This document shows, piece after piece, positions 4,756 to 49,779 of a stretch of 64,000 nt of DNA (position 1 is its first letter; each line of letters starts with the position of its first letter). The DNA is from Alphaproteobacteria bacterium. GTDB taxonomy: Bacteria > Pseudomonadota > Alphaproteobacteria > UBA7887. The translations under genes were made by a program, and so were the position numbers. The DNA is taken from assembly GCA_965216755.1 (NCBI GenBank), contig CBDCGL010000011.1, positions 3,317,536-3,381,535 on the forward strand. Reading direction: 5' to 3'. The notes beneath the pieces were generated by a model that searched no databases, was not told the origin of the DNA, and saw only the letters and a program-made list of their open reading frames with translations.

Positions 4756-6307
4756 ACACCATGGCGATGTCGCGCGCGTCGGCGGCGGCAATCACCTCGT
4801 CGTCGCGCACCGATCCGCCGGGTTGAATGATCGCCGTGGCGCCGGCGTCGGCGGCGGCGATCAAGCCGTCGGCAAATGGGAAGAACGCATCTGAGGCGAC
4901 CACGGAATCGCGCGTGCGCGCGCCTGTTTCACCAGCCGCGCTGGCCGCGTCTGCTGCTTTCAGCGCGGCAATTCGGGTGGAATCGACGCGACTCATTTGG
5001 CCCGCGCCGATGCCGACGGTGGCGCCGTCGCGGGCAAACACGATGGCGTTTGACTTGACATGTTTGCAGACAGTGAAGGCGAAGCGCATGGTTTCGATTT
5101 CCGCGTCGGTTGGGGCGCGTTTGCTGACCACACGCAGGTCGTCATGTGCCAGCCGGTGATGATCGCCGTCTTGCACCAATAGGCCGCCGGCGACGGCCTT
5201 GACGACAGTTGCCACCGCCGGATCAGGCATCGAGCCGGTCAACAACAGACGCAGGTTCTTCTTTTCGGCGAACACGGCACGCGCGTTGTCGTCGGCCGCC
5301 GGCGCGATGACGACTTCGGTGAATATTCCGGTGATGGCGGCGGCGGTGGCGCCATCCAATGGGCGATTGACCGCGACGATACCCCCAAATGCACTGACCG
5401 GATCGCAGGCGTGGGCACGGGCGTAGGCATCGGCAAGCGTCGCACCGATGGCGACGCCGCACGGATTGGCGTGTTTGACGATCACCGTTGCCGGCTGTTC
5501 GAATTCGGCGGCCAGCGCAAATGCCGCGTCGGTATCGTTGATATTGTTGTAGCTCAGCTCTTTGCCTTGCACTTGTTCGGCCGTGGCGACACTCGGCTGG
5601 GCGCGGTCGGACACATAAAACGCGGCGCGTTGATGGGGGTTTTCGCCATAACGCAAGTCTTGTCGGCGGCTGCCGCCGAACGCCACATGGCGCGGAAACG
5701 GTTCGCCGACTTGGGCACTGAACCAGCCACTGACCGCCGCATCATAAGCGGCCGTGCGCGCGTAGGCGGCCGCCGCCAGGAGACGGCGCAAATCCGCGCT
5801 GATGGCACCGCCGCGGGCGGTGAGTTCGTCAAGCACCGTTTGATAGTCCGCCGGGTCGGTGACCACGGTCACGAAGGCATGGTTCTTTGCGGCCGCGCGG
5901 ATCAATGCCGGGCCGCCAATGTCGATATTCTCGATACACGCAGCGAAATCGCCACCACCTGCGACGGTGTTCTCGAACGGGTACAAATTGACGACCACCA
6001 AATCGATCGTCGGCACGTCATGTGCCAGCAAAGCATCTTGGTGCGACGCCATGTCGCGGCGCGCCAGGATGCCGCCATGGATGGATGGGTGCAGCGTCTT
6101 CACGCGCCCGTCGAGAATCTCCGGGAATCCGGTGACGCGCGCAACGTCTTGCACCGCAACTCCGGCTTCGGCCAATTGTCGCGCCGAACCGCCGGTTGAG
6201 ATCAATTCAATGCCACGATCGGCAAGCGCGCGTGCAAAAGGAACCAGATCGCGCTTGTCGGACACGGACAATAGCGCGCGCCGAATGATGGGGTCGGATG
6301 CCGTCAT
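4727..6307 (-). CDS. purH: bifunctional AICAR transformylase / IMP cyclohydrolase
   Basis: 526-aa protein; N-terminal MGS-like IMP cyclohydrolase domain ([29 protein letters not shown]) and C-terminal AICARFT domain. ATG at 6307. Confidence 0.93.
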
Positions 6308-12506: not shown

Positions 12507-13666
12507 GCCGCCCACCCATCGACCGCGCCGGGCGACGCGGTGTGAACCACGGCATCGAAGGCCGGCCAGGCCACGGCCGGATCGAACCGATGGCCGCCCG
12601 CAATTTCGACCGCCTTGATCCGGTCCGGCGCGCCATAGGCGGCATAAGCGGATTGGGCGCCGGCAATCACCCGGCGTGCGCCCGCAAACGGAAAAATGTG
12701 GTCGTCGGTGCCCGACATGCCAACGAACGGTCGCGGCGCGCACATCGCCACCACATCATCCAAGTCGAGCCAATTGAGAATACCCGGGATCGTGTTTTGA
12801 CCGCCGCTGTCGCGCCGTGCGCCAAGGGTATCTGCAATCGGGCCCAAACAGCCGGACGCCATAACCGCCGCGATGCGTGGATCCAAGGCCGCGGCATGTA
12901 AAGCTGTGGTCCCGCCTGATGAATGTCCAACGATCGCAATCCGGCTGAGATCCAGATATTTGAGCTCGGTCACGGTGTCACGCGCACCGCCGGCCTGCAG
13001 CCAATCGATCACCGCCGAAACATCGCTGGCGCGATCGCCGACCAATGTACGTCCGACCAATAGGGCTTGGTGAAACGCATCCACGCACGGATCGGCCGAG
13101 CGCGGTGTCAAGACTTGCTCGCGCCGTTCCCCGAAACAGATTTGTTCGAGACACAGCGCGACATGGCCGCGCGCGACGGCCTGTCGGGCAAGGTCCAAGC
13201 CGGCCGCGATCTTGACCGGGTCCGGCGGCATGCGCAGCGCTCCCCAGCTTAGATGGGCGCCGGCATTGGTGCCCTGCAAACAAATCACGACCGGCGTCGG
13301 CCCGGCCAACGGCGATTGCCAAAGAACATCGATCGGGATATCGCCGTTCGGTTCGGCGCGCAGATAGGCCCGCCAATGGCGCAGGCCACGGCTGTCGACG
13401 TCGTCGGCGAACCAGGTCGCCAGGGTTTCGCAACGGGCCGCTGGTCGCCAACCGCTTAGCGTCGCCAGCTTGTCCCGTGCCCGCCTTTGCCAAGCCGCGA
13501 CATCGTCAGGGTGATGTGCCCAGGCCAGGGCTTTGGGCGCATCCACACACGCGCGACCGTAGGCTAAGCTCGGGCTCAGCCGCGCCCCGGCGGGTGGTTC
13601 CGGATAGGGGTCGTAGCCACCCTTGCGGCGGATCGCCAAGCGCCGCCTTATCGCCAGCGCGTACAT
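12503..13666 (-). CDS. alpha/beta-hydrolase fold protein (esterase / dienelactone-hydrolase-like)
   Basis: GHSSGG nucleophile elbow (GxSxG), about 390 aa. Start ambiguous: ATG 13666 or GTG 13702. Translationally coupled to the downstream MT-GT2 gene. Confidence 0.6.
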   Translation of the reverse strand: MYALAIRRRLAIRRKGGYDPYPEPPAGARLSPSLAYGRACVDAPKALAWAHHPDDVAAWQRRARDKLATLSGWRPAARCETLATWFADDVDSRGLRHWRAYLRAEPNGDIPIDVLWQSPLAGPTPVVICLQGTNAGAHLSWGALRMPPDPVKIAAGLDLARQAVARGHVALCLEQICFGERREQVLTPRSADPCVDAFHQALLVGRTLVGDRASDVSAVIDWLQAGGARDTVTELKYLDLSRIAIVGHSSGGTTALHAAALDPRIAAVMASGCLGPIADTLGARRDSGGQNTIPGILNWLDLDDVVAMCAPRPFVGMSGTDDHIFPFAGARRVIAGAQSAYAAYGAPDRIKAVEIAGGHRFDPAVAWPAFDAVVHTASPGAVDGWAA

Positions 13667-13884
13667 GGCCGCGCGCGGCCAGCGCGAAAGCGCAGATATC
13701 ACGTCTGTATTCGCCGGCCCACCATGGTCGACGCCCCGCCATCAATTCGTCGTCCGCATGCGGATGTCCACTAACATCGCACACGCATGCGCCATCTCGG
13801 TCTGCCTTACTCCTGGTCGCCGCCGCCGCATCGCGGGGCCGTCCGGGCCAGATAGAGTGACCGTTCGTGTGACTGTAGCACGAA

Positions 13885-14781
13885 TTACCAATGGGAAGGA
13901 TCTACGACCCCTTCAGGCAGATCGCGGCCGATGGTCAAGGCCGTGGCGATCAGGTTCGAGTCGAGCCGCGTGCCGGTGTCCGTCGATGCCGGCAACTGGT
14001 CTTTGCTATCGACTCCAACCACAATCGATGCCACCCCCGGCACCGCCCGCACAACGCCTATGGCCAATTGCCATGGCGACAAACCGGCGTCGCTGGCCAA
14101 GGCGTGCAAGCGCGCGACCGGTTCTTTAAGAGCGGCCAACCGTGCGGTGATCGCGTCCGGTTGTGCCAACAGCAGGCCCTGCAGAAACACGCTGCGCGCC
14201 CACACGAAGACCCCGGCCGTGGCCGCCTCTGCAATCACGTCGGAGCGGATAAAGGCCTGATTGAAAACATTGATGGGAATCTGCAGCAGACGCAGATTTG
14301 GCACGGCCAGCGCAGCACGGGCCTGCGCAACGGTATAGACCGAGGCGCCGAACGCCCCAACTTGACCTGTCTCGGCGGCGCGGCACAGCGTGTCGACGAT
14401 GTCGTTGCGCGCCAAATTGTCGGGCCGATGGGCAAGATAGCCGTCGATTCGCGCCGCTCCAAGCCGGCGTCGAGATTGGTCCAATTGGCGGTGGAGTTCC
14501 GCAGCGTCGCCGCAGTCGCCGAATTTACTGATCAACAAAGGCGTGTGGGCGCGCGTCCGGCGCCAGGCACCGATCCGCATTTCGGCATCGCCATAGGCGT
14601 GGGCGGTGTCAAAACAAGTCATTCCCGCCGCCCATGCGGCATCCAAGACCGCCAGGGCAGCCGCCTCTGTCGGTTTGCCTTCGCGGTTGGCAATACCATA
14701 GGCCATGCCGAGCTGGGCCGTCCCCAAGGTCAGCGTTGGGATCGATCGTTTGCCGGGGCCGGGGAATAGCTGATCTGCCAT
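13885..14781 (-). CDS. aldo/keto reductase family oxidoreductase
   Basis: 298 aa; AKR pattern (LGTAQLGMAYG ... FDTAHAYG). ATG at 14781. The antisense 292-aa ORF 13891..14769 is a shadow frame. Confidence 0.8.
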   Translation of the reverse strand: MADQLFPGPGKRSIPTLTLGTAQLGMAYGIANREGKPTEAAALAVLDAAWAAGMTCFDTAHAYGDAEMRIGAWRRTRAHTPLLISKFGDCGDAAELHRQLDQSRRRLGAARIDGYLAHRPDNLARNDIVDTLCRAAETGQVGAFGASVYTVAQARAALAVPNLRLLQIPINVFNQAFIRSDVIAEAATAGVFVWARSVFLQGLLLAQPDAITARLAALKEPVARLHALASDAGLSPWQLAIGVVRAVPGVASIVVGVDSKDQLPASTDTGTRLDSNLIATALTIGRDLPEGVVDPSHW

Positions 14782-14859
14782 GATCGTGATTTATGCGAAA
14801 GGTGTATCCTGCACCCGCGCCGCCGCAGGCGCGCACATAGAATAGGGTCGCCATCGTCG

Positions 14860-15621
14860 ATGATGCGCGCGATTTTTGAACAACTGCTGTTGGTGCCGAC
14901 GGTGCTGGTGTGGATTGCCGTGTTCGGTTTGCTGGTGTGGCGCTGGCGGCGTCTGAGCCTTGCGTGTCTAATCGCCGCCATTGGCGGCTTGTTTGTTTTG
15001 AGTTTGCCCATTGTCGCACGCGCGCTGCTGCTGCCGCTATTGGCGACGGTGACCTTGTATGACGGTGCCGATCTGGCCGGTGATATCATATTGGTTCCGA
15101 CCGCCGGCATATTTCGCGATGTCGAAGGGACGCCTTGGCCGTCGGCCGAAAGCATTCGCCGTGCCAGCCAAGGCCGGCGGATCCAAGTCCAGACCGGTTT
15201 GCCGTTGGCAATTATCGGCGGTGATCCGCAGGGAATCGGTGTCGCAGAGGCATTCGTCGTCGCCGACGCGCTCGGCGAAACGCCGGGGCCAGTCGTGATC
15301 GACGGTGCCGCCGACAACTCGATCGAAACGGCATTTGCACTGGCGCGCATCGTCCGCGAGATCGGCGGTCGCGAGGTCATACTTGCGACCACGCCGACCC
15401 ATGTCGCGCGCATGGCGGCCAGTTTACGCCGGGTCGGCGTGGTCGTTTTGGCCGATTTGTCCGCCCATCCGGCGCGGCAGCCCGTGGCGATCACGGACTT
15501 CCTCCCCAGCGCCGGTGGCCTCGCGCAAAGTCGCCATGTGATCCGCGAATATGCTGCGATTCTGTGGTATTTGTTCGACGGCTCCATTCGCGTTGGCGAT
15601 CTGCGGCCGGCAGCGGGCTAG
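14860..15621 (+). CDS. YdcF/ElyC-like DUF218 family protein (envelope biogenesis associated)
   Basis: 253 aa, N-terminal TM helices followed by a DUF218-like Rossmann-like domain (ILVPTAGIF... VIDGAADNSIETA). Confidence 0.6.
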   Translation: MMRAIFEQLLLVPTVLVWIAVFGLLVWRWRRLSLACLIAAIGGLFVLSLPIVARALLLPLLATVTLYDGADLAGDIILVPTAGIFRDVEGTPWPSAESIRRASQGRRIQVQTGLPLAIIGGDPQGIGVAEAFVVADALGETPGPVVIDGAADNSIETAFALARIVREIGGREVILATTPTHVARMAASLRRVGVVVLADLSAHPARQPVAITDFLPSAGGLAQSRHVIREYAAILWYLFDGSIRVGDLRPAAG

Positions 15622-15636
15622 TAAGGACGTGACACG

Positions 15637-16137
15637 GTGAAGCGCTGGTTTGTGGTTCATACGCGCGCCCATGGCGAACAGCGCGCCTACGAAAACCTCT
15701 GCCGCCAAGGTTTCGACGCTTGGTTGCCGCGCTACCGCAAGAAGCGCCGCCACGCAGGTCGCCTGGAAACTGTTTTGCGACCTCTCTTCCCCAGATATCT
15801 GTTTGTGTCCGTGGATTTGGCGGCCGAACGTTGGCGCGCCATCCTATCGACCTTTGGGGTCGCCGGGTTGGTGGGCGCCGTAGATGGCCCAGAGCCGGTG
15901 CCCGACGGCGTTGTCAACGCCTTGCGTGCGCGCGCCGACGCCGATGGCTGTTTCACGTTGCATCGGGCGGCGACGATGAAACCGGGCCAGCCGGTGCGTA
16001 TCGGCGCCGGCCCCTTTCAAGACATCGAAGGGATTTTTCAAGCCCCTAGCGACGCCGAGCGGGTGGTTATTCTGCTGCAACTGATGGGGCGCACGGTTTC
16101 GATCACCGTGCCGGCATCGGATATCGACGCGCTCTGA
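15637..16137 (+). CDS. NusG-paralog transcription antiterminator, RfaH-like (NGN + KOW domains)
   Basis: 166 aa; MKRWFVVHTRAHGEQRAYENL (NGN domain, compare RfaH WYLLYCKRGQ), PLFPRYLFVSVD (RfaH PLFPNYLFVEFD), C-terminal KOW-like GQPVRIGAGPFQDIEGIF. Encoded inside the glycan island, and an exact ops element occurs at 23100-23111. Confidence 0.8.
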   Translation: MKRWFVVHTRAHGEQRAYENLCRQGFDAWLPRYRKKRRHAGRLETVLRPLFPRYLFVSVDLAAERWRAILSTFGVAGLVGAVDGPEPVPDGVVNALRARADADGCFTLHRAATMKPGQPVRIGAGPFQDIEGIFQAPSDAERVVILLQLMGRTVSITVPASDIDAL

Positions 16138-16147
16138 TGTTTCGGTG

Positions 16148-16253
16148 TTTCGGCATTTCGGTGACAGTTTACTAAATACACCATATTCAGCGTATTCTCG
16201 GCAGGCACTACAGCTTGTGGTGTATTTAGTAAACTGTCACCGAAATGCCGAAA
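16148..16253. repeat. perfect 36-bp inverted repeat (arms 16148-16183 and 16218-16253, 34-nt loop) flanked by tttcggtg-type 8-mer repeats; fills the convergent gap between the rfaH-like gene and cysQ
   Basis: Read directly: TTTCGGCATTTCGGTGACAGTTTACTAAATACACCA ... TGGTGTATTTAGTAAACTGTCACCGAAATGCCGAAA, no mismatches. Three tandem 8-mers (tttcggtg tttcggca tttcggtg) on the left are mirrored on the right. No U-tract on either side. Confidence 0.9.
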
Positions 16254-16255
16254 TA

Positions 16256-17029
16256 TCAGGCGCCGCGGGCGATGAAAAAGCCGTTGCGGAAATCCGTCTT
16301 GCCGTAAAGAAACGGTTCGTCGTCTGGCGTACGTACGCTGCCGCCTGCGGCCAACAATACCGCATGACCGGCCGCGGTGTCCCATTCCATGGTTGGTCCG
16401 AAACGAGGATATAGATCGGCCTCGCCCAGGGCGACCACACAGAATTTGTAGGACGAGCCGGCCTGGTGCAGACCGGCGACACGAACGGATTTGAGCCAGG
16501 CTTCGGTTTCGGCGCTGAAATGGGAGCGACTGGCGACCACCGTCGCCCCATCCGCCGGGGCGGCCCGAACATGTATGGGTTCGATCGGGCCGTCGCCCTG
16601 CCGGCGAAATGCCTGACCGGGCGTATAGCCCCAGACCAAAACATCTTTGGCCGGCAGCTGCACGACCCCCAGAACCGGCAGGCTGTTTTCGATCAACGCG
16701 ATGTTCACCGTGAATTCGTCGCGGTTCTTGATGAACTCCTTGGTGCCGTCCAGCGGGTCGACCAGCCAAAACAAATCATTGTCCGGAATGCCGGCGGCCA
16801 CCGACTCGGTACTTTCCTCAGACACGATCGGGATATCCGGGGTCAAGGCCCGCAGGCCGTCGACGATGACCCGGTTAGCGGCCAGATCCGCCTCGGTCAC
16901 CGGCGAGCGGTCATCCTTGGTCTCGACGGTGATGCCACGCGCGCGCACGGCCAGGATTTCGCGTCCGGCGCGGCGCGCGATATCGCAAATGGGCGGCGCC
17001 AACGCCGCCAGATCAATGGTATCTGTCAT
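16256..17029 (-). CDS. cysQ: 3'(2'),5'-bisphosphate nucleotidase (PAP phosphatase)
   Basis: 257 aa, inositol-monophosphatase fold motifs ([17 protein letters not shown]). ATG at 17029 overlaps the cysNC stop. Confidence 0.85.
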
Positions 17030-18927
17030 ACCGTGTACTGAAACCGCTGGTCGATATACGTCAAGATTTCACGGGCGCAGTCATCGACCGACCGCGCGGC
17101 CGTGTCGACGACCAAATCCGGCGTCTCGGGCAATTCATAAGGTGCACTGACGCCGGTGAACTCGCTGATTTCGCCCTTGCGCGCGCGCTTGTACAGGCCT
17201 TTGGGGTCACGCGCCTCACAGGTTGCCAAATCAGCCTTGATATAGACTTCATGAAAACCACCCTCCAAAGACAGCCGGTCGGTGGCTTCGCGGGCACGGT
17301 GGCGGTCGGCGCGATAGGGCGAAATAAACGCCGTCAGAACGATCATGCCGGCATCCGCGAACAAGGCGGCAGCTTCGCCAACCCGGCGAATATTCTCGGC
17401 GCGATCTTCCGGCGAAAAGCCGAGATTGGCGTTCAGGCCCATCCGGACATTATCGCCGTCCAGCACATAGACATGGTAGCCGCGGGCGAACATCAAGCGC
17501 TCGACCGCGCGCGCCAGGGTCGATTTGCCGGCGCCGGACAGGCCGGTGAACCACACCACGCCGCCGCCATGGCCGTTCCGCTTGCTTCGCGCGTCCTCGT
17601 CGATCGTGCCGCGTTCTTCATAGACATTGGTCGACTTGACCGTGATCAACGAGCGCTGATCCGGATAGCCTTCCATGCTGACAATGCCGCCGCCGGCGAT
17701 CTCGTAACCGTCGACCAAGACAAAGCGTCCGGTGCGCGGATTGCGGGCATATTCATCCAAAGCGAGCATCGATCGCGCTCGCAGCACGACTTCGCCGACG
17801 GTGTTTTGCTCCATGCGGTCGGCGGCGACATGGTCGAGGGATTCGGAATCGATCGCATGTTCAATCGACTGCACGGTGACCGCCGTTTCGATGGTGTTGA
17901 GCTTGAGCTTGTATTGGTTGCCCGGCGCCAGCGCCCGCTCGCCCAGCCAAAACACACGCGCTCGAAACACGTTTGACTCAACCGGCGGGCGGTCGATATG
18001 GCTGGCAATTTCGCCACGCTCGACAAACAGCTGCTCGTCCAGCGTCACGCCGACCGATTGGCCGGCGCGCACTTCGATCGGTGGGTCGGCGTGCCAGGCC
18101 TCAATCGAGCGGACCCGCGCGGTCTTGTTCGACGGCGAAAACAACAAAGTATCGCCGACGCGCACAATGCCACTTTCGATACGGCCCGCGAAAATGCGCC
18201 GTTCGTCGAATTTGTAGACGTCTTGGACGGCAAATCGCAGCGGCAGATCGGTCGGTGGCGGCAGTGGCTCGAAGCCGTCCAACGCCTCGAGCAGGCCCGG
18301 GCCCTCGTACCACGGCGTGCGTTCGGAATTGACGACGATATTGTCGCCTTCCCGGGCCGACACCGGTAAAACATGTCGCGGTGTCACGCCCAGTTCGCTC
18401 AAATAAGCACAGAATTCCTTCTCGACTTGCGCGAAACGGCCGGCGTCATAATCGATCCGGTCGATCTTGTTGATCACCAGGATCACCTGCGTGATGCCCA
18501 AAAGGTGCAGCAGGTAACCATGTCGGCGCGACTGCTCGCGCACGCCTTCTTCGGCGTCGATCAACAACACCGCGGCGTCGGCGGCCGCGGCGCCGGTGAC
18601 CATGTTGCGCAGGAATTCTTTGTGGCCGGGCGCGTCGATGATGACATAGTCGCGCAAGGCACTGCGAAACCAGATGTGGGCGGTATCTATGGTCACGCCC
18701 TGATCGCGTTCACCCTGCAAGGCATCGGTCAGAAACGCCCATTCGAAAGGCATGCCGCGGCGTCGACACATCTCTTGTATGGCCTCGAACCGACCCTCGG
18801 GCAAACTGCCGGTGTCGTGAAATAACCGTCCAACCAAAGTCGATTTGCCGTGGTCGACATGGCCGACAATGACGATCCGCAATGGATCGCCCAACGGCGC
18901 CACGGGGTGTGTTTTGCGCGCTGCCAT
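17026..18927 (-). CDS. cysNC: bifunctional sulfate adenylyltransferase subunit 1 / adenylylsulfate (APS) kinase (CysN-CysC fusion, NodQ-like)
   Basis: 633 aa; N-terminal GTPase ([11 protein letters not shown]) of the CysN type and C-terminal APS kinase P-loop ([15 protein letters not shown]). Confidence 0.9.
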
Positions 18928-18933
18928 GGCGTT

Positions 18934-19731
18934 CTACATATAGCCATCGGCGCGCAAGCGCTCGAAGGCATCCTCTGCTTCGTGGTCCATTGCGCGCCCC
19001 GACCGTTCCGGGACCCGCGTTGTCTCGAGTTCCGCGATGATCTCCTCGACCGTGCTGGCGTCGCTGTCGATCGGCGACGTGATGTCCTCGTCGCCCAGCG
19101 AGCGATAGCGCTTGCCGTCTTTCGAGAAATACAGATCGACGATCGGGATGTGTTCGCGGGCGATATAGCGCCAGATATCGATTTCCGTCCAATGCAACAA
19201 GGGATGCACGCGGACATGCGTGCCCGGTGGGAAATCGACGTTGTATTGATCCCAGAATTCGGGCGGCTGCTTGCGCACATTCCAGGCGGCATCGATGCCG
19301 CGCGGACTGAACACGCGCTCTTTTGCGCGGGTGCCTTCCTCGTCGCGGCGAATGCCGGCGATAAGGCCCGTATAGCCTTGGCGTTCGATCATCGCCTTCA
19401 GGCCGCCGGTCTTGCGCGCCGCCGAACGGGCCGCGGGCGGTAGCGAGGGATCGATCTCTTCAATCGGCGGACAATCGCCGGTGACCAGATCCAATTCCCA
19501 TTCGCGCGCGTAGCGTTCGCGAAAGGCATACATTTCCGCAAATTTCTTACCGGTGTCGACGTGGACAACCGGGAACGGCACCCTGCCGAAAAACGCCTTT
19601 TTGGCGAGCCAGACCAGAACGTTGGAATCTTTTCCCAACGACCACAGCATCGCCAGATTGTCGATGCGGTTAAAGGCCTCGCGAAAAATATAGACGCTTT
19701 GGCTTTCCAGCCGGTCTAAATGTGATGTCAC
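18934..19731 (-). CDS. cysD: sulfate adenylyltransferase subunit 2 (CysD/NodP)
   Basis: 265 aa; LESQSVYIFREAF ... PAPS-reductase-like PP-loop (LWSLGKDS). GTG start at 19731. Confidence 0.88.
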   Translation of the reverse strand: MTSHLDRLESQSVYIFREAFNRIDNLAMLWSLGKDSNVLVWLAKKAFFGRVPFPVVHVDTGKKFAEMYAFRERYAREWELDLVTGDCPPIEEIDPSLPPAARSAARKTGGLKAMIERQGYTGLIAGIRRDEEGTRAKERVFSPRGIDAAWNVRKQPPEFWDQYNVDFPPGTHVRVHPLLHWTEIDIWRYIAREHIPIVDLYFSKDGKRYRSLGDEDITSPIDSDASTVEEIIAELETTRVPERSGRAMDHEAEDAFERLRADGYM

Positions 19732-19990
19732 GCCTTGCCACCGCCCTTTTTGGGGCGGCGCCCTTGGTTCAATTTATCGGAGGCCCCCGGCTAAGCCGGA
19801 CGGGCCTTATACGGCGATGTCACGCGCCGCGCAACCGCAATGGCGCGCAGACTAAGGGCGGCCGCTTAAGTCTTTCCTAATGGGTCGCCGGCGAGCACCG
19901 AATTTGATGACATCGGCGGGCGATGCCTGGCGCCGTGGTGACCGCGCTGGCGTCCTCAGCGTACGCAAAAAATGATCCGCGTTCAAAACG

Positions 19991-21010
19991 TTACAGAACG
20001 TAGTCCGAACTGGCCCGGACATCCCCGCGCTGCAAGCGCCGTCGCCACCAGTCGATGGTTCGCGCCAAGCCATCGCGCAAGCTGGTCTCAGGTTGCCATC
20101 CTGTATGAGATGAAAAACGCTGCCAATCGGCGAGCAGAGCGCGCACTTCCGATCCCGGCGGTCGCTGTCGTCGCGGGTCCTCTCGAATCGGCTTGGTGGT
20201 GCCGGTCAGTTCGCGCACCATTTCGACCATTGCGCCGATGGTCACCGCGACGCCGGTGCCGGCATTGTAGGGCATGCCATGGTCCAATCCCGTGGTGGCG
20301 CCGGCAGCGAGAAAGGCGGCGGCGGTGTCGCCGACAAAGGTGAAGTCACGGGACGGGCTTAAATCACCCAATGCGATGCTGTCGCAATCGGGATCCAAGG
20401 CCTGGCGGATCGTGCTGGCGATGACGGCGCGCTCGCTTTGACGCGGACCGTAAGTGTTGAACGGGCGCAGCACGACGGCCGGTACTTCAAAGCTCAGGGC
20501 GTAAGCCTGGGCCATCATATCGGCCGCGATCTTACTCGCCGCATAGGGCGATTGGCCGGTCAACGGATGGTCTTCATCAATCGGCGTGCGCCGCGCCGTG
20601 CCATAGACCTCGCTGGTCGAGGTCATCACGACCCGTTCGGGACGGTGATTCCGTGCCGCTTCCAGCAAGTTGACGGCGCCGCCGACATTGACGTCAAGGT
20701 AGCTCTGGGCCGCCCGATAGGAATACGGGATCGCGATCAACGCCGCCAAATGAAAGATGATCTCCTGATCGGCGCACAGACGTCGCACGAAGTGGGCGTC
20801 GCGCATATCGCCGCGCACCAGCGTTAATTGGGCGCGGATGCCAGAGTCGAGACTGTCCAGCCAGCCATGGCTATCGCCGGCATTGTAAAGCGCCAACGCC
20901 GTCACCCGCGCCCCTTGTCCGACCAATGCCTCGGCCACATGAGAGCCAATGAAGCCGTCGGCGCCGGTCACCAAAATGCGGCGACCTTGATAGCTGCTTG
21001 TCTGGGTCAT
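19991..21010 (-). CDS. NAD-dependent sugar-nucleotide epimerase/dehydratase (extended SDR family; UDP-glucuronate decarboxylase / 4-epimerase-like)
   Basis: 339 aa; ILVTGADGFIGSHV Rossmann motif and YxxxK (YAASK). First gene of the minus-strand operon that continues into cysD-cysNC-cysQ. Confidence 0.75.
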   Translation of the reverse strand: MTQTSSYQGRRILVTGADGFIGSHVAEALVGQGARVTALALYNAGDSHGWLDSLDSGIRAQLTLVRGDMRDAHFVRRLCADQEIIFHLAALIAIPYSYRAAQSYLDVNVGGAVNLLEAARNHRPERVVMTSTSEVYGTARRTPIDEDHPLTGQSPYAASKIAADMMAQAYALSFEVPAVVLRPFNTYGPRQSERAVIASTIRQALDPDCDSIALGDLSPSRDFTFVGDTAAAFLAAGATTGLDHGMPYNAGTGVAVTIGAMVEMVRELTGTTKPIREDPRRQRPPGSEVRALLADWQRFSSHTGWQPETSLRDGLARTIDWWRRRLQRGDVRASSDYVL

Positions 21011-21105
21011 GTGCGCCTGACTTGCTGAACCAAAACTGCGCCCGGCACCTTAACCGAAAATCGACACCGGTCCAGACGTGCGGCTTAGGCTTTCCTTAAA
21101 CCCGT

Positions 21106-21117
21106 GTTGGTAGGGTG
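21106..21117 (+). promoter_or_regulatory. ops-like element (GTTGGTAGGGTG) in the 5' leader of the glycosyltransferase gene
   Basis: Matches the ops consensus GGCGGTAGnnTG at 8 of 10 specified positions; shares the 8-mer GTAGGGTG with the leader at 56958-56965. Confidence 0.35.
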
Positions 21118-21172
21118 GTCATCGCGATATCCACGCCCGGCGCAGAGGCGCCCAAGTCCAACGGTGACTGTC

Positions 21173-21886
21173 ATGACTGTCGAACCCATCCGCGTTTTTG
21201 TCGGCTACGACCCCCGCGAAGCGGTGACCTTCAGCGTCCTTGCGCACAGCATCCATCGTCATGCCAGCGTACCGGTTTCAATTACGCCGCTGATGCTGTC
21301 GCAGCTGGGCGGTGTGATGACCCGGCCGCGCGATCCCTTGCAGTCCACCGACTTCTCGTTTTCGCGCTTTCTGACGCCCTATCTGTGCGGCTTTCAGGGT
21401 TGGTCGTTGTTTACCGACTGCGACATGATCGTGTGCGACGATATCGCCAAGCTATGGGCGTTACGCGATGATCGTTATGCCGTGATGTGCGTTCAGCACG
21501 ACCACAAGCCGACCGAGTCGGTGAAGTTCTTGGGCGCGGTCCAAACCAAATATGACAAAAAGAACTGGTCCAGCGTGATGCTATTCAACAATGCCAAATG
21601 CGCCGCGTTGACGCCTGAGTATGTCAATTCGGCCAGTGGCTTGGAACTGCACCAGTTCAAGTGGCTCGACGACGACTCCTTGATCGGCGCGGTGCCGCAA
21701 GACTGGAACCACCTGGTCGACGTGAATCCCGCAAACGCCGATGCGAAGTTGGTCCACTACACGCTCGGCGGGCCGTATTTTAACGAATATATGAACTGCG
21801 AATTCGCTGCCGAATGGTTCGATGAATATAGCCAAACCGTGCGGTGCGACCAACGGGTTGCCGAAAAACCAGCCAAGACCGGCTGA
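21173..21886 (+). CDS. GT-A fold DxD glycosyltransferase (GT8-like nucleotide-diphospho-sugar transferase)
   Basis: About 237 aa from ATG 21173 (MTVEPIRVFVGYDPRE...), DxD-type motif TDCDMIVCDD. The ORF-track N-terminal extension from 21104 is unlikely. Confidence 0.55.
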   Translation: MTVEPIRVFVGYDPREAVTFSVLAHSIHRHASVPVSITPLMLSQLGGVMTRPRDPLQSTDFSFSRFLTPYLCGFQGWSLFTDCDMIVCDDIAKLWALRDDRYAVMCVQHDHKPTESVKFLGAVQTKYDKKNWSSVMLFNNAKCAALTPEYVNSASGLELHQFKWLDDDSLIGAVPQDWNHLVDVNPANADAKLVHYTLGGPYFNEYMNCEFAAEWFDEYSQTVRCDQRVAEKPAKTG

Positions 21887-21904
21887 TTCGGCCACCGCGG
21901 CGCA

Positions 21905-22843
21905 CTATTCCGTGGCGATCATGTCGCGATAGGTTTGGTCGAGCCGTTCAAATAGCTCGTCGCACATTTGTTGAATGCGTGGATCGCGTGCCGCGAACGG
22001 GCTTTTGCGCACCGATGTGGCGAAGATCGACGACAGGAATCGTGGTGACAGCTTGCAACCGATCGCTTCAAAAATGCGCGCGAAACTGGTTTCTGGTTGG
22101 GCGACCAGATCCTCGTATTTGACCAGTAACACGCGCGGATTGCTGTCCAGCGCTTGGGCGAAATAGAACTGATTGCGCAAATACCAAAACACCGCCGCGG
22201 CGTCTTCGGCGGGCATATCGTCGGCATATAATTCCGAGACGCGCGCGATCAGCGCCGGTGTCAACCGTTCCGCGCGCCAGCCGAGCTTGGGCCACGCGCC
22301 GTCGCGGATCCATCGCAGAACGTCTTTTTGATGTTCGCCCCAATAGCGCACCGCCGAATTCGCCACATCGCCGTAATGGCGAAAAATCCAGATAGCGACG
22401 GCGCGCGAATCCAGTTCCAAGATCCGATCCGCCGCTTGGGAATTCATGATCGGCTTAAACGCGATGGTCGGCGCATGGCTGTGCGCGATCAGACCCTTAA
22501 TGGTGTCCGCATCGCGCAGCAGTCCGTATTTCAAGGCCGCGTTGGTGCCTTCCGGATAAACCCAAATCTCCGGCGATTGATCCAAGATCTCGCCCAGCAT
22601 TGTGGTGCCTGATCGTTGGCAACCCAGAATGAAGACGGGTGTTTTCGGTTGGTTGGCCCGATAGCGCAGGCGTTGCCACAGATATTTGCGCGCCAATTTC
22701 AGGCGCGTGGCGGCCGCGCGCCAAGCCCGCCCCATGGTCATCGGGTCAGGTTCCGGGCCCTGAATGCGCAAATCATAGTTGCCGAATTCAGATTGCGGGC
22801 GCGTCTCGTGTCTGTCGTCCGAATCCGAGACCTTGATGTTCAT
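21905..22843 (-). CDS. PAPS-dependent sulfotransferase
   Basis: 5'-PSB motif FILGCQRSGTTMLGEIL and downstream 3'-PB-like region. ATG at 22843. Divergent from the mega-operon promoter region. Confidence 0.7.
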   Translation of the reverse strand: MNIKVSDSDDRHETRPQSEFGNYDLRIQGPEPDPMTMGRAWRAAATRLKLARKYLWQRLRYRANQPKTPVFILGCQRSGTTMLGEILDQSPEIWVYPEGTNAALKYGLLRDADTIKGLIAHSHAPTIAFKPIMNSQAADRILELDSRAVAIWIFRHYGDVANSAVRYWGEHQKDVLRWIRDGAWPKLGWRAERLTPALIARVSELYADDMPAEDAAAVFWYLRNQFYFAQALDSNPRVLLVKYEDLVAQPETSFARIFEAIGCKLSPRFLSSIFATSVRKSPFAARDPRIQQMCDELFERLDQTYRDMIATE

Positions 22844-22988
22844 GGTCGGGACGTTTTTTGGGATCCGCTGTTTGGTGCGGCGAAGGGCGAAGTTGGTCCA
22901 GAATATAGAGGCCACACCGGTGAAGACAACGCCGCTTTGCGGGCGCCGAGTCGGACGCGCGCGAGCTTTTGTTTGAAGCTTGACCTGG

Positions 22989-23027
22989 CGTTCAAATTAT
23001 GAACACCTTTCGCGTTCATAATGTGAA
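22989..23027. promoter_or_regulatory. pair of 15-bp palindromic operator-like sites, GTTCAAATTATGAAC (22989-23003) and GTTCATAATGTGAAC (23013-23027); a -35-like TTGACC lies at 22979-22984
   Basis: Read directly. Both sites have perfect GTTCA/TGAAC outer half-sites with AT-rich 5-bp centres, centres 24 bp apart. Located in the divergent promoter region between the sulfotransferase (-) and the mega-operon (+), about 75-120 bp upstream of the ops element. Confidence 0.45.
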
Positions 23028-23099
23028 CGCATTGCCGCGCCCCGGCGCGGCAGGGTTTGCCTCAGACGCTCTAACCTGGTGAAGCCTTTCACCCGGAAT

Positions 23100-23111
23100 G
23101 GCGGTAGCGTG
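23100..23111 (+). promoter_or_regulatory. exact ops (operon polarity suppressor) element GGCGGTAGCGTG, the RfaH recruitment site, 21 nt upstream of the first ATG of the mega-operon
   Basis: Perfect 12/12 match to the canonical ops sequence on the coding strand of the leader. The first gene lacks a recognisable SD, as expected if RfaH couples the ribosome. An RfaH-like gene is present at 15637-16137. Chance expectation of an exact 12-mer in 2 x 64 kb is about 0.008. Confidence 0.75.
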
Positions 23112-23132
23112 CCCCGCGGCCGTCAATTGTTC

Positions 23133-24272
23133 ATGATACCCAGCTCGCAAACAACCTATGTTCGGCAAACGCCATTGCCGGCAACGGGTGCGCCGTGGCC
23201 GCGTCGCGCGGCGACCGACTTGTGGCGGCATTTCGTCCGGCGCCTCTATCGGAGCCCGCGTTTGGCGGTGACCGAGGCCGACGTGGTGCAGGCCGCGCGG
23301 CCGCGCGATGTCGGGGCGGAAAGCATCAATATTTGCAATGCCCGGTGCACGTTTTGCGGCTATGGCAAGGGGCCTGACGGCAAGGCCGCGGACGCGCGGC
23401 GCAAGGGCAAGTTATCCGCGGACGTGTTTCGTCACACTTTGCGGCTTTACTCTGCCGCGGGCGGCGGTGTCTTCGCCCTGTCGCCGATCTTGGGTGAAGT
23501 GTCGGCGGACCCGCGCTGGCTCGACATGGTGCGCGAGGCGCGCAGCTTCGACAACATCACCGGTGTCAGCTGTTTCACCAATGCCATCCTCCTGCATCGC
23601 TTCGGCGCCGATGCCATCGTCACCGCGGGCATCACCCATATGGCGTTGTCAACCTCGCTTGGCTCGGCGGAACAGTACCGGCGGCTCTATGGGGTCGACA
23701 AATATGATCAGGTGGTGGCCAACATTCTGGACCTGTTGCGTGCCAACCAGCGCCATGGCGCGCCGGTCGATATCAGCATTCATTTGCGCATCGACAAGCC
23801 GTTTTCGAGATTCTTTCGCTCGGACATTTATGCCGAACTGCTGAAATATGTGCCGGCGTCGCGTATTCAAATCTTGGATGATGGCTGGGACGATTTCAAA
23901 GGCCTGATTGGTTCGGACGGCCTGCCCGGTGGTCAACAGTTCAAGGTTCAATATCCAGACAAATCTGTGCCGTGCTATGCGATTTATAGAAAGTTGCAGG
24001 TGCTGAAGGACGGCACGATCCAAGGCTGTTCGTGCCGGATCGAACCCGATCTGTGGGTCGGCAACATCATGGACTTTGACAGCATGGAAGCGGCGTGGCG
24101 CAACCCGGCCTTTGAAGCGCTGCGGGCAAACTGGCATGCGGGCACGATCCCAAACAGCTGCAAGAATTGTAGCCATTACGAGCCCTACACCAATTTGCTG
24201 CGCGCGGCACGACCCGTCACCGTGGCACGGGCGATTGTCGGCAAGCTCAAACGCGTGCTGGGACGGGCCTGA
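23133..24272 (+). CDS. radical SAM protein with C-terminal SPASM-like Cys cluster
   Basis: CNARCTFC (Cx3Cx2C) radical-SAM motif followed by additional Cys motifs (CSCRIEPD ... CKNCSHY). About 379 aa from ATG 23133. Function in glycan modification unknown. Confidence 0.7.
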   Translation: MIPSSQTTYVRQTPLPATGAPWPRRAATDLWRHFVRRLYRSPRLAVTEADVVQAARPRDVGAESINICNARCTFCGYGKGPDGKAADARRKGKLSADVFRHTLRLYSAAGGGVFALSPILGEVSADPRWLDMVREARSFDNITGVSCFTNAILLHRFGADAIVTAGITHMALSTSLGSAEQYRRLYGVDKYDQVVANILDLLRANQRHGAPVDISIHLRIDKPFSRFFRSDIYAELLKYVPASRIQILDDGWDDFKGLIGSDGLPGGQQFKVQYPDKSVPCYAIYRKLQVLKDGTIQGCSCRIEPDLWVGNIMDFDSMEAAWRNPAFEALRANWHAGTIPNSCKNCSHYEPYTNLLRAARPVTVARAIVGKLKRVLGRA

Positions 24273-24899
24273 ATGGCGCGCGAACCGACCGCGCGCGACG
24301 GTCGCGAACAAGCGATTGTTCGCGAAGTTCTTGAACGGATCGACGAATCGCAAGAGATCAGTCAGCGGCAATTGGCCTCGGATTTGGGGATCGCCTTGGG
24401 CATGGCCAACGCCTATATCAAGCGCTGCATTCGCAAGGGCTGGATCAAGGTCAACGAGGCGCCGGCCCGCCGCTATCGCTATTACCTGACGCCAAAAGGG
24501 TTCGCCGAAAAAAGCCGACTGACGGCGCAATACTTTTCTGATTCCCTGCGTTTTTTCGGCCGCGCCCGGCAAAGTTACGATGCCTTGTTCGCGCAATTGG
24601 TGCGGCGCGGCGCGCGCCGCGTGGTGCTGTGCGGTGCCGATGAGCTGACTGAAATCGCGGCACTGTGCGCCCTGAAACACGATGTTAAGGTGGTCGGCGT
24701 GCTGCGCGGCGATGGGCGCGATGATCCGCTTGCCGGGCTACCGGCGATCGGCGAAGCATCTGCGGGCAATGTCGACTATTGGGTGATCGCCAGCTCCAGC
24801 GACGCCGCGCCGCTCTATACGCGAATTGGCGCCGCCAAAGGGCTTGATCATGTTGCCTATCCAGAGCTGTTGCGCCGGGTGGTGGGCGCGGCGCAATGA
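24273..24899 (+). CDS. winged-helix (MarR/ArsR-like wHTH) regulator with C-terminal Rossmann-like domain
   Basis: N-terminal wHTH (REVLERIDESQEISQRQLASDLGIALGMANAYIKRCIRKGWIKV). ATG overlaps the upstream stop (TGAATG region). Confidence 0.55.
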   Translation: MAREPTARDGREQAIVREVLERIDESQEISQRQLASDLGIALGMANAYIKRCIRKGWIKVNEAPARRYRYYLTPKGFAEKSRLTAQYFSDSLRFFGRARQSYDALFAQLVRRGARRVVLCGADELTEIAALCALKHDVKVVGVLRGDGRDDPLAGLPAIGEASAGNVDYWVIASSSDAAPLYTRIGAAKGLDHVAYPELLRRVVGAAQ

Positions 24900-26029
24900 G
24901 CGTGCCATCTGCGCGGCGGCCCTTGCACATGTTTGAACCCGATTTGGGTGATGCCGAAGAGCAGGCGGTCGTGGCGGTTTTGCGGTCTGGCTGGGTTGCC
25001 ATGGGGCCCAAGGTCGAGGCCTTTGAAGAACGATTTGCTGCGTTGACCGGGTCCGGCCACGCGGTTGCAGTGGGGTCGTGTACCGCCGCCCTACATTTGA
25101 CCAATCTGGCCCTGGACATCGGACCAGGCGACGACGTGATCGTGCCGTCGCTGACCTTCGCGGCGACCGCCAACGCCGTCCACATGACCGGCGCGACCCC
25201 GGTGTTCGCCGATGTTGTCGGGCCTGACGATTGGACGATCTCCGCCGATGACGTGGCGCGAAAATTGACCGACCGGACGCGGGCGGTCATCGCCATGCAT
25301 TATGCTGGCCACGCGGCTGACATGGATCGCCTGGCGGCGGTGTGCCAAAAGGCTGATGTCGACTTGATCGAAGACGCCTGCCACGGTCTGGGTGGGCAGC
25401 TTGGTGATCGCGCGCTCGGCGCCATCGGTCGAGCCGGATGTTTTAGTTTCTATAGTAATAAATTGATCACCACCGGCGAGGGCGGCATGGTGACCACCGA
25501 TGACCAAGCGCTGGCGGAACGGATCAAACGCTTGCGTTCGCACGGCATGACCGCGACGGCGATCGATCGCGTGCGCGGTGCCATGATCTATGACGTGACC
25601 GAACCTGGCCTCAACTATCGTCTGGATGACCTGCGCGCGGCCCTGGGCCTGGCACAGTTGGATCGGATCAATGACAAATTGGCCCGTCGGCACGAATTGG
25701 TCGCCCGATACGAGTCGCGCTTGGCGGTTATGGACGGCGTCGCAACGCCCGATTGCGGCCGGCGCGGTCGCTCGGCCCACTATCTGATGCCGGTGCGGCT
25801 GACGCAAGCCGATCGTGATGCGGTGCGTCGCCGATTGCAGGCCGATGGCATTCAAACGTCGGTGCATTACCGCCCGGTCCATCAATTTGCACACTATCGT
25901 GATCAGGCCACACCTTTGCCGCTGACCGAGGACATCGGCGCCAAGACTCTCAGTTTGCCACTCTATCCAAGCATGACTTTGGACCAAGTCGACCGCGTCT
26001 GTGACGCCCTGGCCGAGGCCGCGGGATAA
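24896..26029 (+). CDS. DegT/DnrJ/EryC1/StrS family PLP-dependent sugar aminotransferase (LegC/PglE-like)
   Basis: 377 aa; aspartate-aminotransferase fold type I sugar aminotransferase pattern with conserved Lys region (FSFYSNKLITTGEGG). Confidence 0.85.
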   Translation: MSVPSARRPLHMFEPDLGDAEEQAVVAVLRSGWVAMGPKVEAFEERFAALTGSGHAVAVGSCTAALHLTNLALDIGPGDDVIVPSLTFAATANAVHMTGATPVFADVVGPDDWTISADDVARKLTDRTRAVIAMHYAGHAADMDRLAAVCQKADVDLIEDACHGLGGQLGDRALGAIGRAGCFSFYSNKLITTGEGGMVTTDDQALAERIKRLRSHGMTATAIDRVRGAMIYDVTEPGLNYRLDDLRAALGLAQLDRINDKLARRHELVARYESRLAVMDGVATPDCGRRGRSAHYLMPVRLTQADRDAVRRRLQADGIQTSVHYRPVHQFAHYRDQATPLPLTEDIGAKTLSLPLYPSMTLDQVDRVCDALAEAAG

Positions 26030-39926: not shown

Positions 39927-40681
39927 CGCCAGCCCGAATTGTCGCGCGCCTGGACATCAAGGGCGAAAACGTCATCAAAGGCGTGCATCTGGAAGGCTTG
40001 AAACTGGTCGGCAAGCCGGGCGATCTGGCGCGCCGCTATTATGCCGAGGGCGCCGACGAACTGATCTATATGGATGTCGTCGCTTCGCTCTATGGGCGCA
40101 ACAACATATTGGCGGTGGTCGAAGAGGCCGCCCGCGATGTGTTCATCCCACTCACCGTTGGTGGTGGCCTGCGCGGCCTTGATGACATTGTTGCCGCGCT
40201 CAGAAGTGGCGCGGACAAGGTGGCGATCAATACGGCGGCGATCGCGCGACCGGCGTTTCTGGACGAGGCGGCCAAAGCATTTGGCAGCCAGTGCATCATG
40301 TTGTCGGTTGAGGCCAAACAGCGCGCTCCGGGCCGGTGGGAGGCATTGACCGACAATGGCCGCGAACGCACCGATATCGATGTTCTGGCTTGGGTGGCCG
40401 AGGCCGAGCGGCGGGGTGCGGGCGAGATCTTGCTGACCTCGGTGGATCAGGAAGGCACGCAAAAGGGATTTGATGTCGAACTGATACGGGCCGTGCGCGA
40501 GCGCGTGCGCATTCCGGTGATTGCCTGCGGGGGCGCTGGATGCGGCGATCATGTCGGCGCCATGTTGGCGGAAACCGCGTGCGACGCGGTCGGTTGCGCG
40601 TCACTGTTTCATTACGATCTGTGCGCGATCCCTGATTTGAAAAACACGCTTTCGGCCAGAGGGCAGCGCGTGCGCCGATGA
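39923..40681 (+). CDS. HisF-like cyclase subunit, copy 2
   Basis: RIVARLDIKGENVIKGVHLEGLKLVGKP ... IPLTVGGGLR ... ACGGAG; GTG start overlapping the upstream stop. Confidence 0.85.
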   Translation: MTPARIVARLDIKGENVIKGVHLEGLKLVGKPGDLARRYYAEGADELIYMDVVASLYGRNNILAVVEEAARDVFIPLTVGGGLRGLDDIVAALRSGADKVAINTAAIARPAFLDEAAKAFGSQCIMLSVEAKQRAPGRWEALTDNGRERTDIDVLAWVAEAERRGAGEILLTSVDQEGTQKGFDVELIRAVRERVRIPVIACGGAGCGDHVGAMLAETACDAVGCASLFHYDLCAIPDLKNTLSARGQRVRR

Positions 40682-41292: not shown

Positions 41293-41314
41293 CGGCCGGC
41301 CTGTTAGGAAATCC

Positions 41315-49766: not shown

Positions 49767-49779
49767 TCTCGTCATCGCC

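Follow-up and report, generated by a model that had tools for sequence, protein, structure and literature searches.

Sulfate-activation genes and two putative sulfotransferases in a nonulosonate glycan superlocus of an alphaproteobacterium

Genes for PAPS synthesis and sulfotransfer

The stretch analysed here, called the window in the following, comprises 64,000 nucleotides of contig CBDCGL010000011.1 of an alphaproteobacterium (GCA_965216755.1). Its gene map was drawn from lists of open reading frames (ORFs) and from Pfam and NCBIfam scans. The window (~62% GC) holds a large alphaproteobacterial surface-glycan superlocus predicted to make at least one nonulosonic acid activated with cytidine monophosphate (CMP). 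It contains genes for the synthesis of adenosine 5'-phosphosulfate (APS) and 3'-phosphoadenosine 5'-phosphosulfate (PAPS), a gene for the removal of 3'-phosphoadenosine 5'-phosphate (PAP) and two putative sulfotransferases, named ST1 and ST2. The genes in question, together with the adjoining gene of a short-chain dehydrogenase/reductase (SDR), are:

16256-17029, minus strand: cysQ, 3'(2'),5'-bisphosphate nucleotidase (Pfam Inositol_P ~1e-51; TIGR01331 277 bits, cut-off 228.8)
17026-18927, minus strand: cysN-cysC fusion (cysNC), GTPase subunit of ATP sulfurylase joined to APS kinase (GTP_EFTU 1e-42; APS_kinase 1e-63)
18934-19731, minus strand: cysD, small subunit of ATP sulfurylase (PAPS_reduct domain 2e-33; NF003587 343 bits, cut-off 195)
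19991-21010, minus strand: SDR gene of the LegB-like NAD-dependent 4,6-dehydratase family (best NCBIfam match TIGR04180 LegB, 366 bits, under the cut-off of 475)
21905-22843, minus strand: ST1, putative cytoplasmic PAPS-type sulfotransferase of 312 amino acids (PF13469 Sulfotransfer_3 59.3 bits; PF00685 Sulfotransfer_1 37.4 bits)
45107-46078, plus strand: ST2, putative cytoplasmic PAPS-type sulfotransferase (PF13469 Sulfotransfer_3 73.6 bits)

CysQ, which removes PAP, the by-product of sulfotransfer, has intact metal-binding motifs (DPLDGT and WDTAAG). The CysN-CysC fusion scored above the cut-offs of TIGR02034 (370 versus 336) and of the apsK model TIGR00455 (240 versus 139) and just short of that of the whole-fusion model PRK05506 (638 versus 715); in its APS-kinase domain the P-loop and the motifs LDGD, FISP and DPKGLY are intact. 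CysD is 78-82% identical to the CysD proteins of syntenic relatives. Since cysD and cysNC are separated by only 6 nt and cysNC and cysQ overlap by 4 nt, the three genes are almost certainly transcribed as one unit, and they constitute a complete and intact gene set for PAPS synthesis and PAP removal with operon-like spacing. The initial annotation had placed these genes in an operon with a sugar epimerase. Curated family scores and spacing confirmed the tightly packed minus-strand cys unit, but co-transcription with the SDR gene was not established and the label "epimerase" is too generic, since the best family match is LegB, a 4,6-dehydratase, albeit below the cut-off. The SDR gene lies on the same strand as cysD, 259 nt upstream of it; the gap between them contained neither terminator-like sites nor riboswitches, in a promoter/terminator scan whose site count did not exceed that of shuffled sequence and an Rfam search that covered 13000-25000. 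SDR homologs with 65-70% identity in three comparison loci (L123, L124 and L126) adjoin the genes of a methyltransferase-glycosyltransferase (GT) family 2 fusion (MT-GT2) and of a PMT_2 protein, not cysD or genes of legionaminic acid (Leg) type. An assimilatory neighbourhood was looked for as well: the Pfam and NCBIfam scans found no cysH, cysI or cysJ in the window, and the sole PAPS_reduct match was CysD itself.

All Pfam scores of ST1 and ST2 were above the gathering thresholds, and the search with hidden Markov models (HMMs) assigned ST1 to Sulfotransfer_3/_1 and ST2 to Sulfotransfer_3. In alignments of 21 homologs each, the residues G74, Q76, R77, S78, G79, T80, R155 and S163 of ST1 and G27, R30, S31, G32, E52, R184 and S192 of ST2 were invariant, and E98 of ST1 was conserved in at least 90% of the family. 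Both proteins thus keep the 5'-phosphosulfate loop (GxxRSGT), the Arg...Ser pair that binds the 3'-phosphate and a Glu about 20 residues past the loop; the motifs of ST2 align with PRSGSTLL and VRHPYxxxES of the sulfotransferase domains of CurM and olefin synthases. The AlphaFold2 models had mean confidence (pLDDT) values of 88.9 (ST1) and 89.6 (ST2). In Foldseek searches against the Protein Data Bank (PDB), all 50 matches listed for ST2 were sulfotransferases, led by the CurM domain and tyrosylprotein sulfotransferase (TPST), and 49 of the 50 listed for ST1 were described as such, the exception being Teg14 (3nib); the top matches of ST1 were tyrosylprotein sulfotransferases. The matches included CurM/olefin-synthase domains, TPST1/2, Stf1/Stf9 and heparan-sulfate 3-O-sulfotransferases, with TM-scores of 0.4-0.57. 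A transmembrane segment was found in neither protein, which fits the use of cytoplasmic PAPS. Judged by their motifs and models, both sulfotransferases look functional, and the two PAPS-motif sulfotransferases of the initial annotation thereby hold up in Pfam significance, invariant residues and fold, with the PAPS-binding residues intact in both. Neither belongs to the NoeE or the LpsS (Stf0) family: against the NoeE model NF052394 they reached 33 (ST1) and 21 bits (ST2), with a cut-off of 500 and through the P-loop only, and Stf0 was not listed among their Pfam matches.

Genomic context of ST2

ST2 lies between an exporter gene of the ATP-binding cassette (ABC) type and a KpsC/KpsS-like gene, downstream of a sub-cluster of Leg-type genes:

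34145-43269, plus strand: Leg-type sub-cluster encoding, by Pfam, a CBS-nucleotidyltransferase, a DegT aminotransferase, the synthase NeuB-2, a hydrolysing 2-epimerase, a 459-aa protein, HisF, HisH, WbuX and a CMP-transferase
43266-45110, plus strand: ABC exporter with fused transmembrane and nucleotide-binding domains, MsbA/PglK architecture (ABC_membrane 4e-16; ABC_tran 2e-32; six transmembrane-like segments)
46097-47677, plus strand: KpsC/KpsS-like protein of 526 amino acids, putative CMP-nonulosonate glycosyltransferase

The start of ST2 overlaps the stop of the exporter gene by 4 nt, and the KpsC-like gene begins 19 nt past ST2. The latter ORF has no Pfam or NCBIfam match of its own; 11 of the 13 aligned members of its family match PF05159 Capsule_synth (best E = 3e-12), and the family profile matched KpsC (6mgb) marginally, with E = 0.0015 over ~70 residues. 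The arrangement given in the initial annotation, exporter, sulfotransferase and KpsC/S-like gene, is therefore found, the KpsC/S-likeness being a weak one that appears at the level of the family. WbuX of the sub-cluster scored 365 bits with TIGR03573 (cut-off 203).

The contexts of ST2 homologs were collected by exact look-ups and a metagenome scan, and the loci were compared with all proteins of the window. The family is rare, with 31 proteins found among 5.8 billion, the best being 59% identical. In all 12 ST2 loci of at least 8 kb the ST2 homolog is part of a Leg-type cluster and is surrounded by genes for a NeuB-2-type synthase, a hydrolysing 2-epimerase, a CMP-transferase and WbuX/HisF/HisH. 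The genes of the Leg-type sub-cluster are the ones that accompany ST2 homologs elsewhere. Shorter contigs mostly show the same neighbours; none was present in L091 (1.3 kb), L103 and L108 (~3 kb). In about 14 loci a KpsC-like homolog is the immediate neighbour of the ST2 homolog, and homologs of the ABC exporter occur in L081, L082, L084, L093, L098 and L110. The GC content of the ST2 loci ranges from 27 to 71%; the linkage to nonulosonate genes has therefore persisted or arisen anew in widely differing hosts and is not the accident of one lineage. Genes for sulfate activation lie beside ST2 homologs in at least eight loci besides the window:

L082: cysD, cysNC and cysQ adjoining the cluster
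L084: Sat-type ATP sulfurylase and a second sulfotransferase
L097 and L106: CysD-type gene directly downstream of the ST2 homolog
L102 and L105: APS kinase directly upstream of the ST2 homolog
L104: CysN-APS kinase fusion directly upstream of the ST2 homolog
L107: APS kinase directly downstream of the ST2 homolog

The non-orthologous replacement of CysDN by Sat is good evidence that PAPS itself is the functional requirement. Three ST1-family homologs, examined as a control, had no nonulosonate or sulfate-activation context. The second sulfotransferases of L081 and L084 were considered as ST1 orthologs and rejected.

In the route that we infer, with its acceptor, sulfate position and order of steps, CysD and the CysN domain would make APS and the fused CysC domain would convert it to PAPS. 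The Leg-type sub-cluster would make a CMP-activated di-N-acyl nonulosonate with an acetamidino group, which would come from WbuX, HisF and HisH, and the KpsC-like enzyme would transfer this sugar to a lipid-linked acceptor or polymerise it. ST2, translationally coupled to the exporter gene, would sulfate, in the cytoplasm and with PAPS, a hydroxyl of the Leg-type sugar or of a neighbouring residue in the glycan into which the KpsC-like enzyme builds it; CysQ would hydrolyse the inhibitory PAP, and the co-transcribed MsbA-like ABC protein would export the sulfated lipid-linked product. ST1 could introduce another sulfate or have a different target altogether. The assignment of the exact sugar is tentative: a PseB equivalog (514 bits) and PseG-like genes are present in the window too, and PseB-like genes accompany several ST2 loci.

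We consider it probable that ST2 draws PAPS from the adjacent operon and uses it to sulfate a product of the island. That the nonulosonate itself carries the sulfate is a serious possibility, if not quite our expectation. A wider proposal, that an ST2-family sulfotransferase and a KpsC-like CMP-nonulosonate transferase, often with their own APS kinase or ATP sulfurylase, form a widely scattered and so far undescribed module that makes O-sulfated Leg-type sugars, is plausible to the same nearly balanced degree. The sulfate esters which the initial annotation had predicted on the nonulosonate polymer are thus well founded for ST2, by intact motifs and comparative genomics, while ST1 is tied to the polymer by its position only and its acceptor may be a different one. 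Several observations weigh against this reading. The acceptor is read from the gene neighbourhood only. Among solved structures, ST2 is closest in sequence to the CurM/olefin-synthase domain, in which sulfate serves as a leaving group and not as a decoration. In the closest syntenic relatives (L123, L124/125 and L126/127) the HMMs of three sulfotransferase families matched nothing within 10 kb; the cys operon thus occupies the same slot in relatives without a visible sulfotransferase, and its position is possibly ancestral and not a consequence of sulfation. No ST2-family protein of the 4.79-Mb relative L125 was among the 31 found. Finally, the closest homologs of ST1 (42-49% identity) reside in non-glycan neighbourhoods, as read from three loci that look cyanobacterial.

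The relation to CurM raises the question of whether sulfation could be transient, with ST2 activating a hydroxyl as leaving group during nonulosonate tailoring and the final product carrying no sulfate. The structure matches of ST2 agree with its sequence matches in pointing to CurM and olefin-synthase domains, and the cluster is rich in tailoring enzymes such as radical S-adenosylmethionine (rSAM)/SPASM proteins, methyltransferases, ATP-grasp and AsnB-like proteins. The CurM-type matches are, however, remote (15-18% identity, TM-score ~0.5), no thioesterase-like partner is conserved and the partner that is conserved is glycosyltransferase-like, all of which makes this explanation very improbable.

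Alternatively, ST2 could sulfate the glycan of the island on a different sugar, one that belongs to the repeat or the primer, for instance a hexosamine or a 6-deoxyhexose made by the flanking genes. Such sugars are to be expected, as the superlocus encodes a WbpM-like dehydratase and, beyond the nonulosonate genes, a GT4 initiating transferase, GT2, GT1 and GT-C proteins. Going by the titles cited, sulfated O-polysaccharides are on record in marine bacteria, with a 2-O-sulfated 3,6-dideoxyglucose derivative in Idiomarina and sulfated O-polysaccharides in Poseidonocella (PMC7281560, PMC9912281). Yet ST2 homologs co-occur specifically with Leg-type genes and the KpsC-like gene, even on small contigs, whereas glycosyltransferases other than the KpsC-like one are not conserved with them. 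We therefore regard a different sugar as an unlikely site.

For ST1 the genes around it have to be considered:

21104-21886, plus strand: GT8-like ORF (Glyco_transf_8 E = 8e-4, under the gathering score)
23079-24272, plus strand: rSAM/SPASM protein, first ORF of the ~40-kb nonulosonate operon as mechanically called
24273-24899, plus strand: MarR-family regulator associated with exopolysaccharide (MarR_EPS; HTH_24 1e-8; TIGR04176 64 bits, under the cut-off of 88)

The GT8-like ORF is flanked by the SDR gene and ST1, is encoded on the strand opposite to both and had no NCBIfam or PDB match and no homolog in any fetched locus. ST1 could have entered the interval between cysD and the nonulosonate operon with this ORF in a recent insertion and could sulfate a peptide or small molecule in the manner of RaxST or TPST. 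Besides the non-glycan neighbourhoods of its homologs and its top structural matches, the TPSTs, two observations favour this: ST1 orthologs are missing from all ST2 loci and syntenic relatives, and the cysD-MarR_EPS interval of the relatives contains neither ST1 nor the GT8-like ORF nor the rSAM gene. On the other hand, ST1 is located within the island, 900 bp from the SDR gene and less than 3 kb from the PAPS genes; its matches to TPST, CurM and heparan-sulfate sulfotransferases are about equally good and hence uninformative on the substrate, and no C39-peptidase exporter or precursor-like gene was seen. On balance a non-glycan substrate of ST1 is possible but rather doubtful.

The superlocus and the source of PAPS

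The further features of the superlocus are:

4727-6307, minus strand: purH, flank of the superlocus
after purH, minus strand: glycan block encoding the WbpM-like dehydratase, the GT4 initiating transferase, a PMT_2 GT-C protein, an MT-GT2 fusion, an alpha/beta hydrolase and an aldo-keto reductase
before the NusG paralog, plus strand: DUF218 gene
15637-16137, plus strand: NusG paralog, RfaH-like candidate (Pfam NusG 3e-20)
23100-23111, plus strand: ops-like 12-mer GGCGGTAGCGTG at the head of the nonulosonate operon
23079 to the end of the window, plus strand: unbroken array of genes

The closest relatives of CysNC are those of L123 (75% identity), L124/125 (71%), L126/127 (70%) and L082 (70%), and all share the order of the superlocus, which in L123, L124/125 and L126/127 reads purH, WbpM-like, GT4, PMT_2, MT-GT2, SDR, DUF218, NusG paralog, cysQ-cysNC-cysD, MarR_EPS and nonulosonate genes. 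In L126/127 the 10-kb flank extends to the flanking purH. The MarR_EPS regulator is 56-61% identical in L082, L124 and L126 and is the first gene of the nonulosonate operon in the relatives.

For a wider comparison, 80 related CysNC loci with 57-67% identity were taken from named genomes. They mostly adjoin leuS/lptE/holA/parAB and yggS; cysH lies upstream in 10 of the 80, an unrelated sulfotransferase gene in nine, and cysQ is present in two. In the ten, cysH is directly upstream of cysD, and the representative that was read (L014) has the CC...CxxC cysteines which mark APS reductases. Organisms with an APS reductase do not need APS kinase for assimilation, and the enzyme serves sulfotransfer there; with a cysH of this type, the kinase domain and CysQ would matter only for sulfotransfer, and the same may apply to the present genome. 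The nine loci with the other upstream gene (L013, L018, L021, L023, L024, L025, L027, L030 and L065) belong to alphaproteobacterial genomes in which cysD-cysNC adjoins leuS and/or yggS. Their gene directly upstream of cysD is Sulfotransfer_1-like, with a PKSGNTW loop, and unrelated to ST1 and ST2; cysDNC genes paired with a sulfotransferase gene are thus a recurrent arrangement in Alphaproteobacteria.

Is the cys operon a dedicated duplicate, or the ordinary and possibly sole sulfate-activation operon of the organism, which lies in the superlocus by descent and fills a general PAPS pool on which the sulfotransferases draw? We lean slightly towards the latter, in which case the operon would presumably feed sulfur assimilation too. 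The shared gene order of L123, L124/125 and L126/127, without a visible sulfotransferase, agrees with it, and so does the CysNC identity, which falls continuously from 75, 73, 71 and 70% to 67% and below. In a neighbour-joining tree of CysNC, a method that cannot separate orthology from paralogy, the island-type copies formed one clade that is no deeper than the presumably housekeeping clades beside leuS/yggS or cysH. A second CysNC from the source genome or from L125 was not among the 120 best matches, which reach down to ~64% identity; this search would not have picked up a copy below that value, a CysN without the fusion or a sulfurylase of the Sat type. Against a shared pool speak the operonic cysQ, which 78 of the 80 cysDNC loci in the wider comparison lack, and the ST2 loci of unrelated hosts with an APS kinase or sulfurylase of their own, which make private supply a recurring theme. 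A shared pool is compatible with a sulfated glycan and contradicts a dedicated supply; with shared use, the case for the operon as a supplier of the sulfotransferases remains just as strong. In its simplest reading, cysDNCQ is a resident, possibly unique operon of the glycan superlocus of this lineage, and ST2 and ST1 would be later additions that exploit it. A dedicated duplicate is the more tentative view, somewhere between doubtful and evenly balanced, and a cysDNC-cysQ operon in a glycan locus should not automatically be annotated as one.

Homologs of the NusG paralog (60-67% identity) occupy the same position beside cysQ in L123, L124/125 and L126/127. The 12-mer GGCGGTAGCGTG is an exact E. 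coli-type ops sequence that occurs once in the window, with 0.07 occurrences expected. In the equivalent leader of L124/125 (8903-), L126 (8948-) and L082 (2941+) the sequence GGCGGTAG(CGTG/CATG/CATT), which conserves 8 to 12 nt of this element, was found, oriented into the operon; the NusG paralog is also kept in these loci except for L082, whose fetched flank ends at cysQ. The leader of a long polysaccharide operon thus appears to combine the two marks of an RfaH/ops system, a NusG-family paralog and an ops element, which hints at antitermination of the RfaH kind in a lineage of Alphaproteobacteria. The 12-mer lies within the rSAM ORF as called mechanically (start at 23079), and the true start of this gene is probably further downstream.

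The gap between the convergent NusG paralog and cysQ is filled by a perfect inverted repeat (16144-16257) with exact arms of 36 nt (~42 bp paired when folded) and a spacer of 34 nt. The repeat has no second copy in the window and a higher AT content than the sequence around it, its RNA folds with -73.9 kcal/mol (z = -15), and it may be a bidirectional terminator or an element resembling a miniature inverted-repeat transposable element. An Rfam match of this long hairpin to the plant miRNA MIR2587 was dismissed as spurious.

The plus-strand array starts with the rSAM/SPASM protein and the MarR_EPS regulator and contains three NeuB synthases (at 28337, 36173 and 51665), three CMP-transferases, one of them fused to a class-III aminotransferase, two WbuX amidotransferases with HisF/HisH partners and the PseB equivalog. 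Its many tailoring genes code for rSAM/SPASM, methyltransferase, ATP-grasp, FabH-like, AsnB-like, PIG-L and GNAT proteins. The operon-like part from 24896 to 63693 (plus strand) may yield as many as three nonulosonic acids that differ in their tailoring. The rSAM/SPASM protein at the head of the array had no sequence match in the PDB, and all its NCBIfam matches were far under the cut-offs; it may be a sugar-tailoring radical enzyme. Homologs with 40% and 25% identity are located in two unrelated nonulosonate clusters (L094, 17688-18713, and L107, 14643-15722), a few kb downstream of ST2 homologs. Two large conserved proteins, of 651 aa (49717-51672, plus strand) and 459 aa (38547-39926, plus strand), matched nothing in Pfam or NCBIfam; with neighbours of Pse-type and Leg-type genes in L081 and L084 they share 41-51% and 70% identity, respectively. 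By these neighbourhoods they are candidates for further nonulosonate transferases. Two other assignments were tried and rejected: megablast of 15600-23000 against plasmids gave only trivial cys matches of 60-80 nt and hence no known plasmid island, and no Maf or flagellar Pfam family that would indicate a flagellin-glycosylation island was found among the ORFs of the window.

Comparison with known systems

The closest functional analogue is the rhizobial system of NodP/NodQ with NodH, NoeE or LpsS, which sulfates the Nod factor and the lipopolysaccharide of Sinorhizobium meliloti. There, too, PAPS comes from a CysD homolog together with a CysN-APS kinase fusion, and the sulfotransferases of this alphaproteobacterium use it to modify glycoconjugates that are secreted or on the surface. 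The parallel to nodPQ/lpsS drawn in the initial annotation stands in function and fails at the sulfotransferase families: LpsS is annotated as an Stf0-family enzyme (PMC12445080), whereas ST1 and ST2 are of the Sulfotransfer_3/_1 type. Moreover, ST2 is embedded in a nonulosonate operon and cysQ is part of the cys operon in the window.

In Xanthomonas, the CysD- and CysNC-like genes raxP/raxQ provide PAPS to RaxST, an enzyme of the Sulfotransfer type. The combination of PAPS genes with a sulfotransferase is the same, and the top structural matches of ST1 are of the tyrosylprotein type; in contrast to the Rax system, the exporter of the window lacks a C39 domain, and neither a peptidase-containing ABC exporter nor a precursor peptide gene was seen.

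The O-antigen of Legionella pneumophila is a polylegionaminic acid made of 5-acetamidino legionaminic acid, O-acetylated and exported in an ABC-transporter-dependent manner. The window resembles it in the Leg-type genes, the WbuX/HisH/HisF-type set and export of the ABC type. Unlike Legionella, it has a sulfotransferase in place of an O-acetyltransferase, a fused MsbA-like exporter in place of Wzm/Wzt, a KpsC-like protein as putative transferase and up to three nonulosonate pathways in one operon. Nonulosonates are CMP-activated, like 3-deoxy-D-manno-octulosonic acid (Kdo). KpsC/KpsS and WbbB (PDB 6mgb, 8fuw and 5fa0), which are retaining beta-Kdo transferases with a CMP-ulosonic donor, are members of the Capsule_synth superfamily, and the neighbour of ST2 is a distant member of it. 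Since no Kdo-8-P synthase was seen in the window, a CMP-nonulosonate appears the more likely donor of the KpsC-like enzyme.

Nonulosonic acids are surface determinants with roles in immune evasion, phage reception, motility and the biofilm matrix. The bacterial decorations of these sugars known to us are acyl, acetamidino, methyl and O-acetyl groups, and a sulfate ester would give them a strong fixed charge and create a new epitope. The literature search found no sulfated legionaminic or pseudaminic acid from bacteria and no bacterial sulfotransferase associated with nonulosonic acids. In the matrices of granular sludge, sialic-acid-like sugars and sulfated glycoconjugates occur together, and the sulfotransferases responsible could not be identified (PMC10483923). 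The enzymology proposed here is ordinary and the predicted product unusual; the conserved pair of ST2 and the KpsC-like gene makes the prediction directly testable, and the pair could serve as a specific marker for sulfated nonulosonates in isolates and metagenomes.

O-sulfated sialic acids are described from echinoderms and vertebrates (PMC9304399, PMC13634767). The product predicted for the window would have in common with them a nine-carbon 2-keto-3-deoxy sugar that carries a PAPS-dependent sulfate ester; unlike ST2, the animal enzymes are eukaryotic Golgi enzymes that act on Neu5Ac or Neu5Gc. If the prediction is true, the product would be the first sulfated nonulosonic acid known in bacteria, a counterpart of the sulfated sialic acids of animals.

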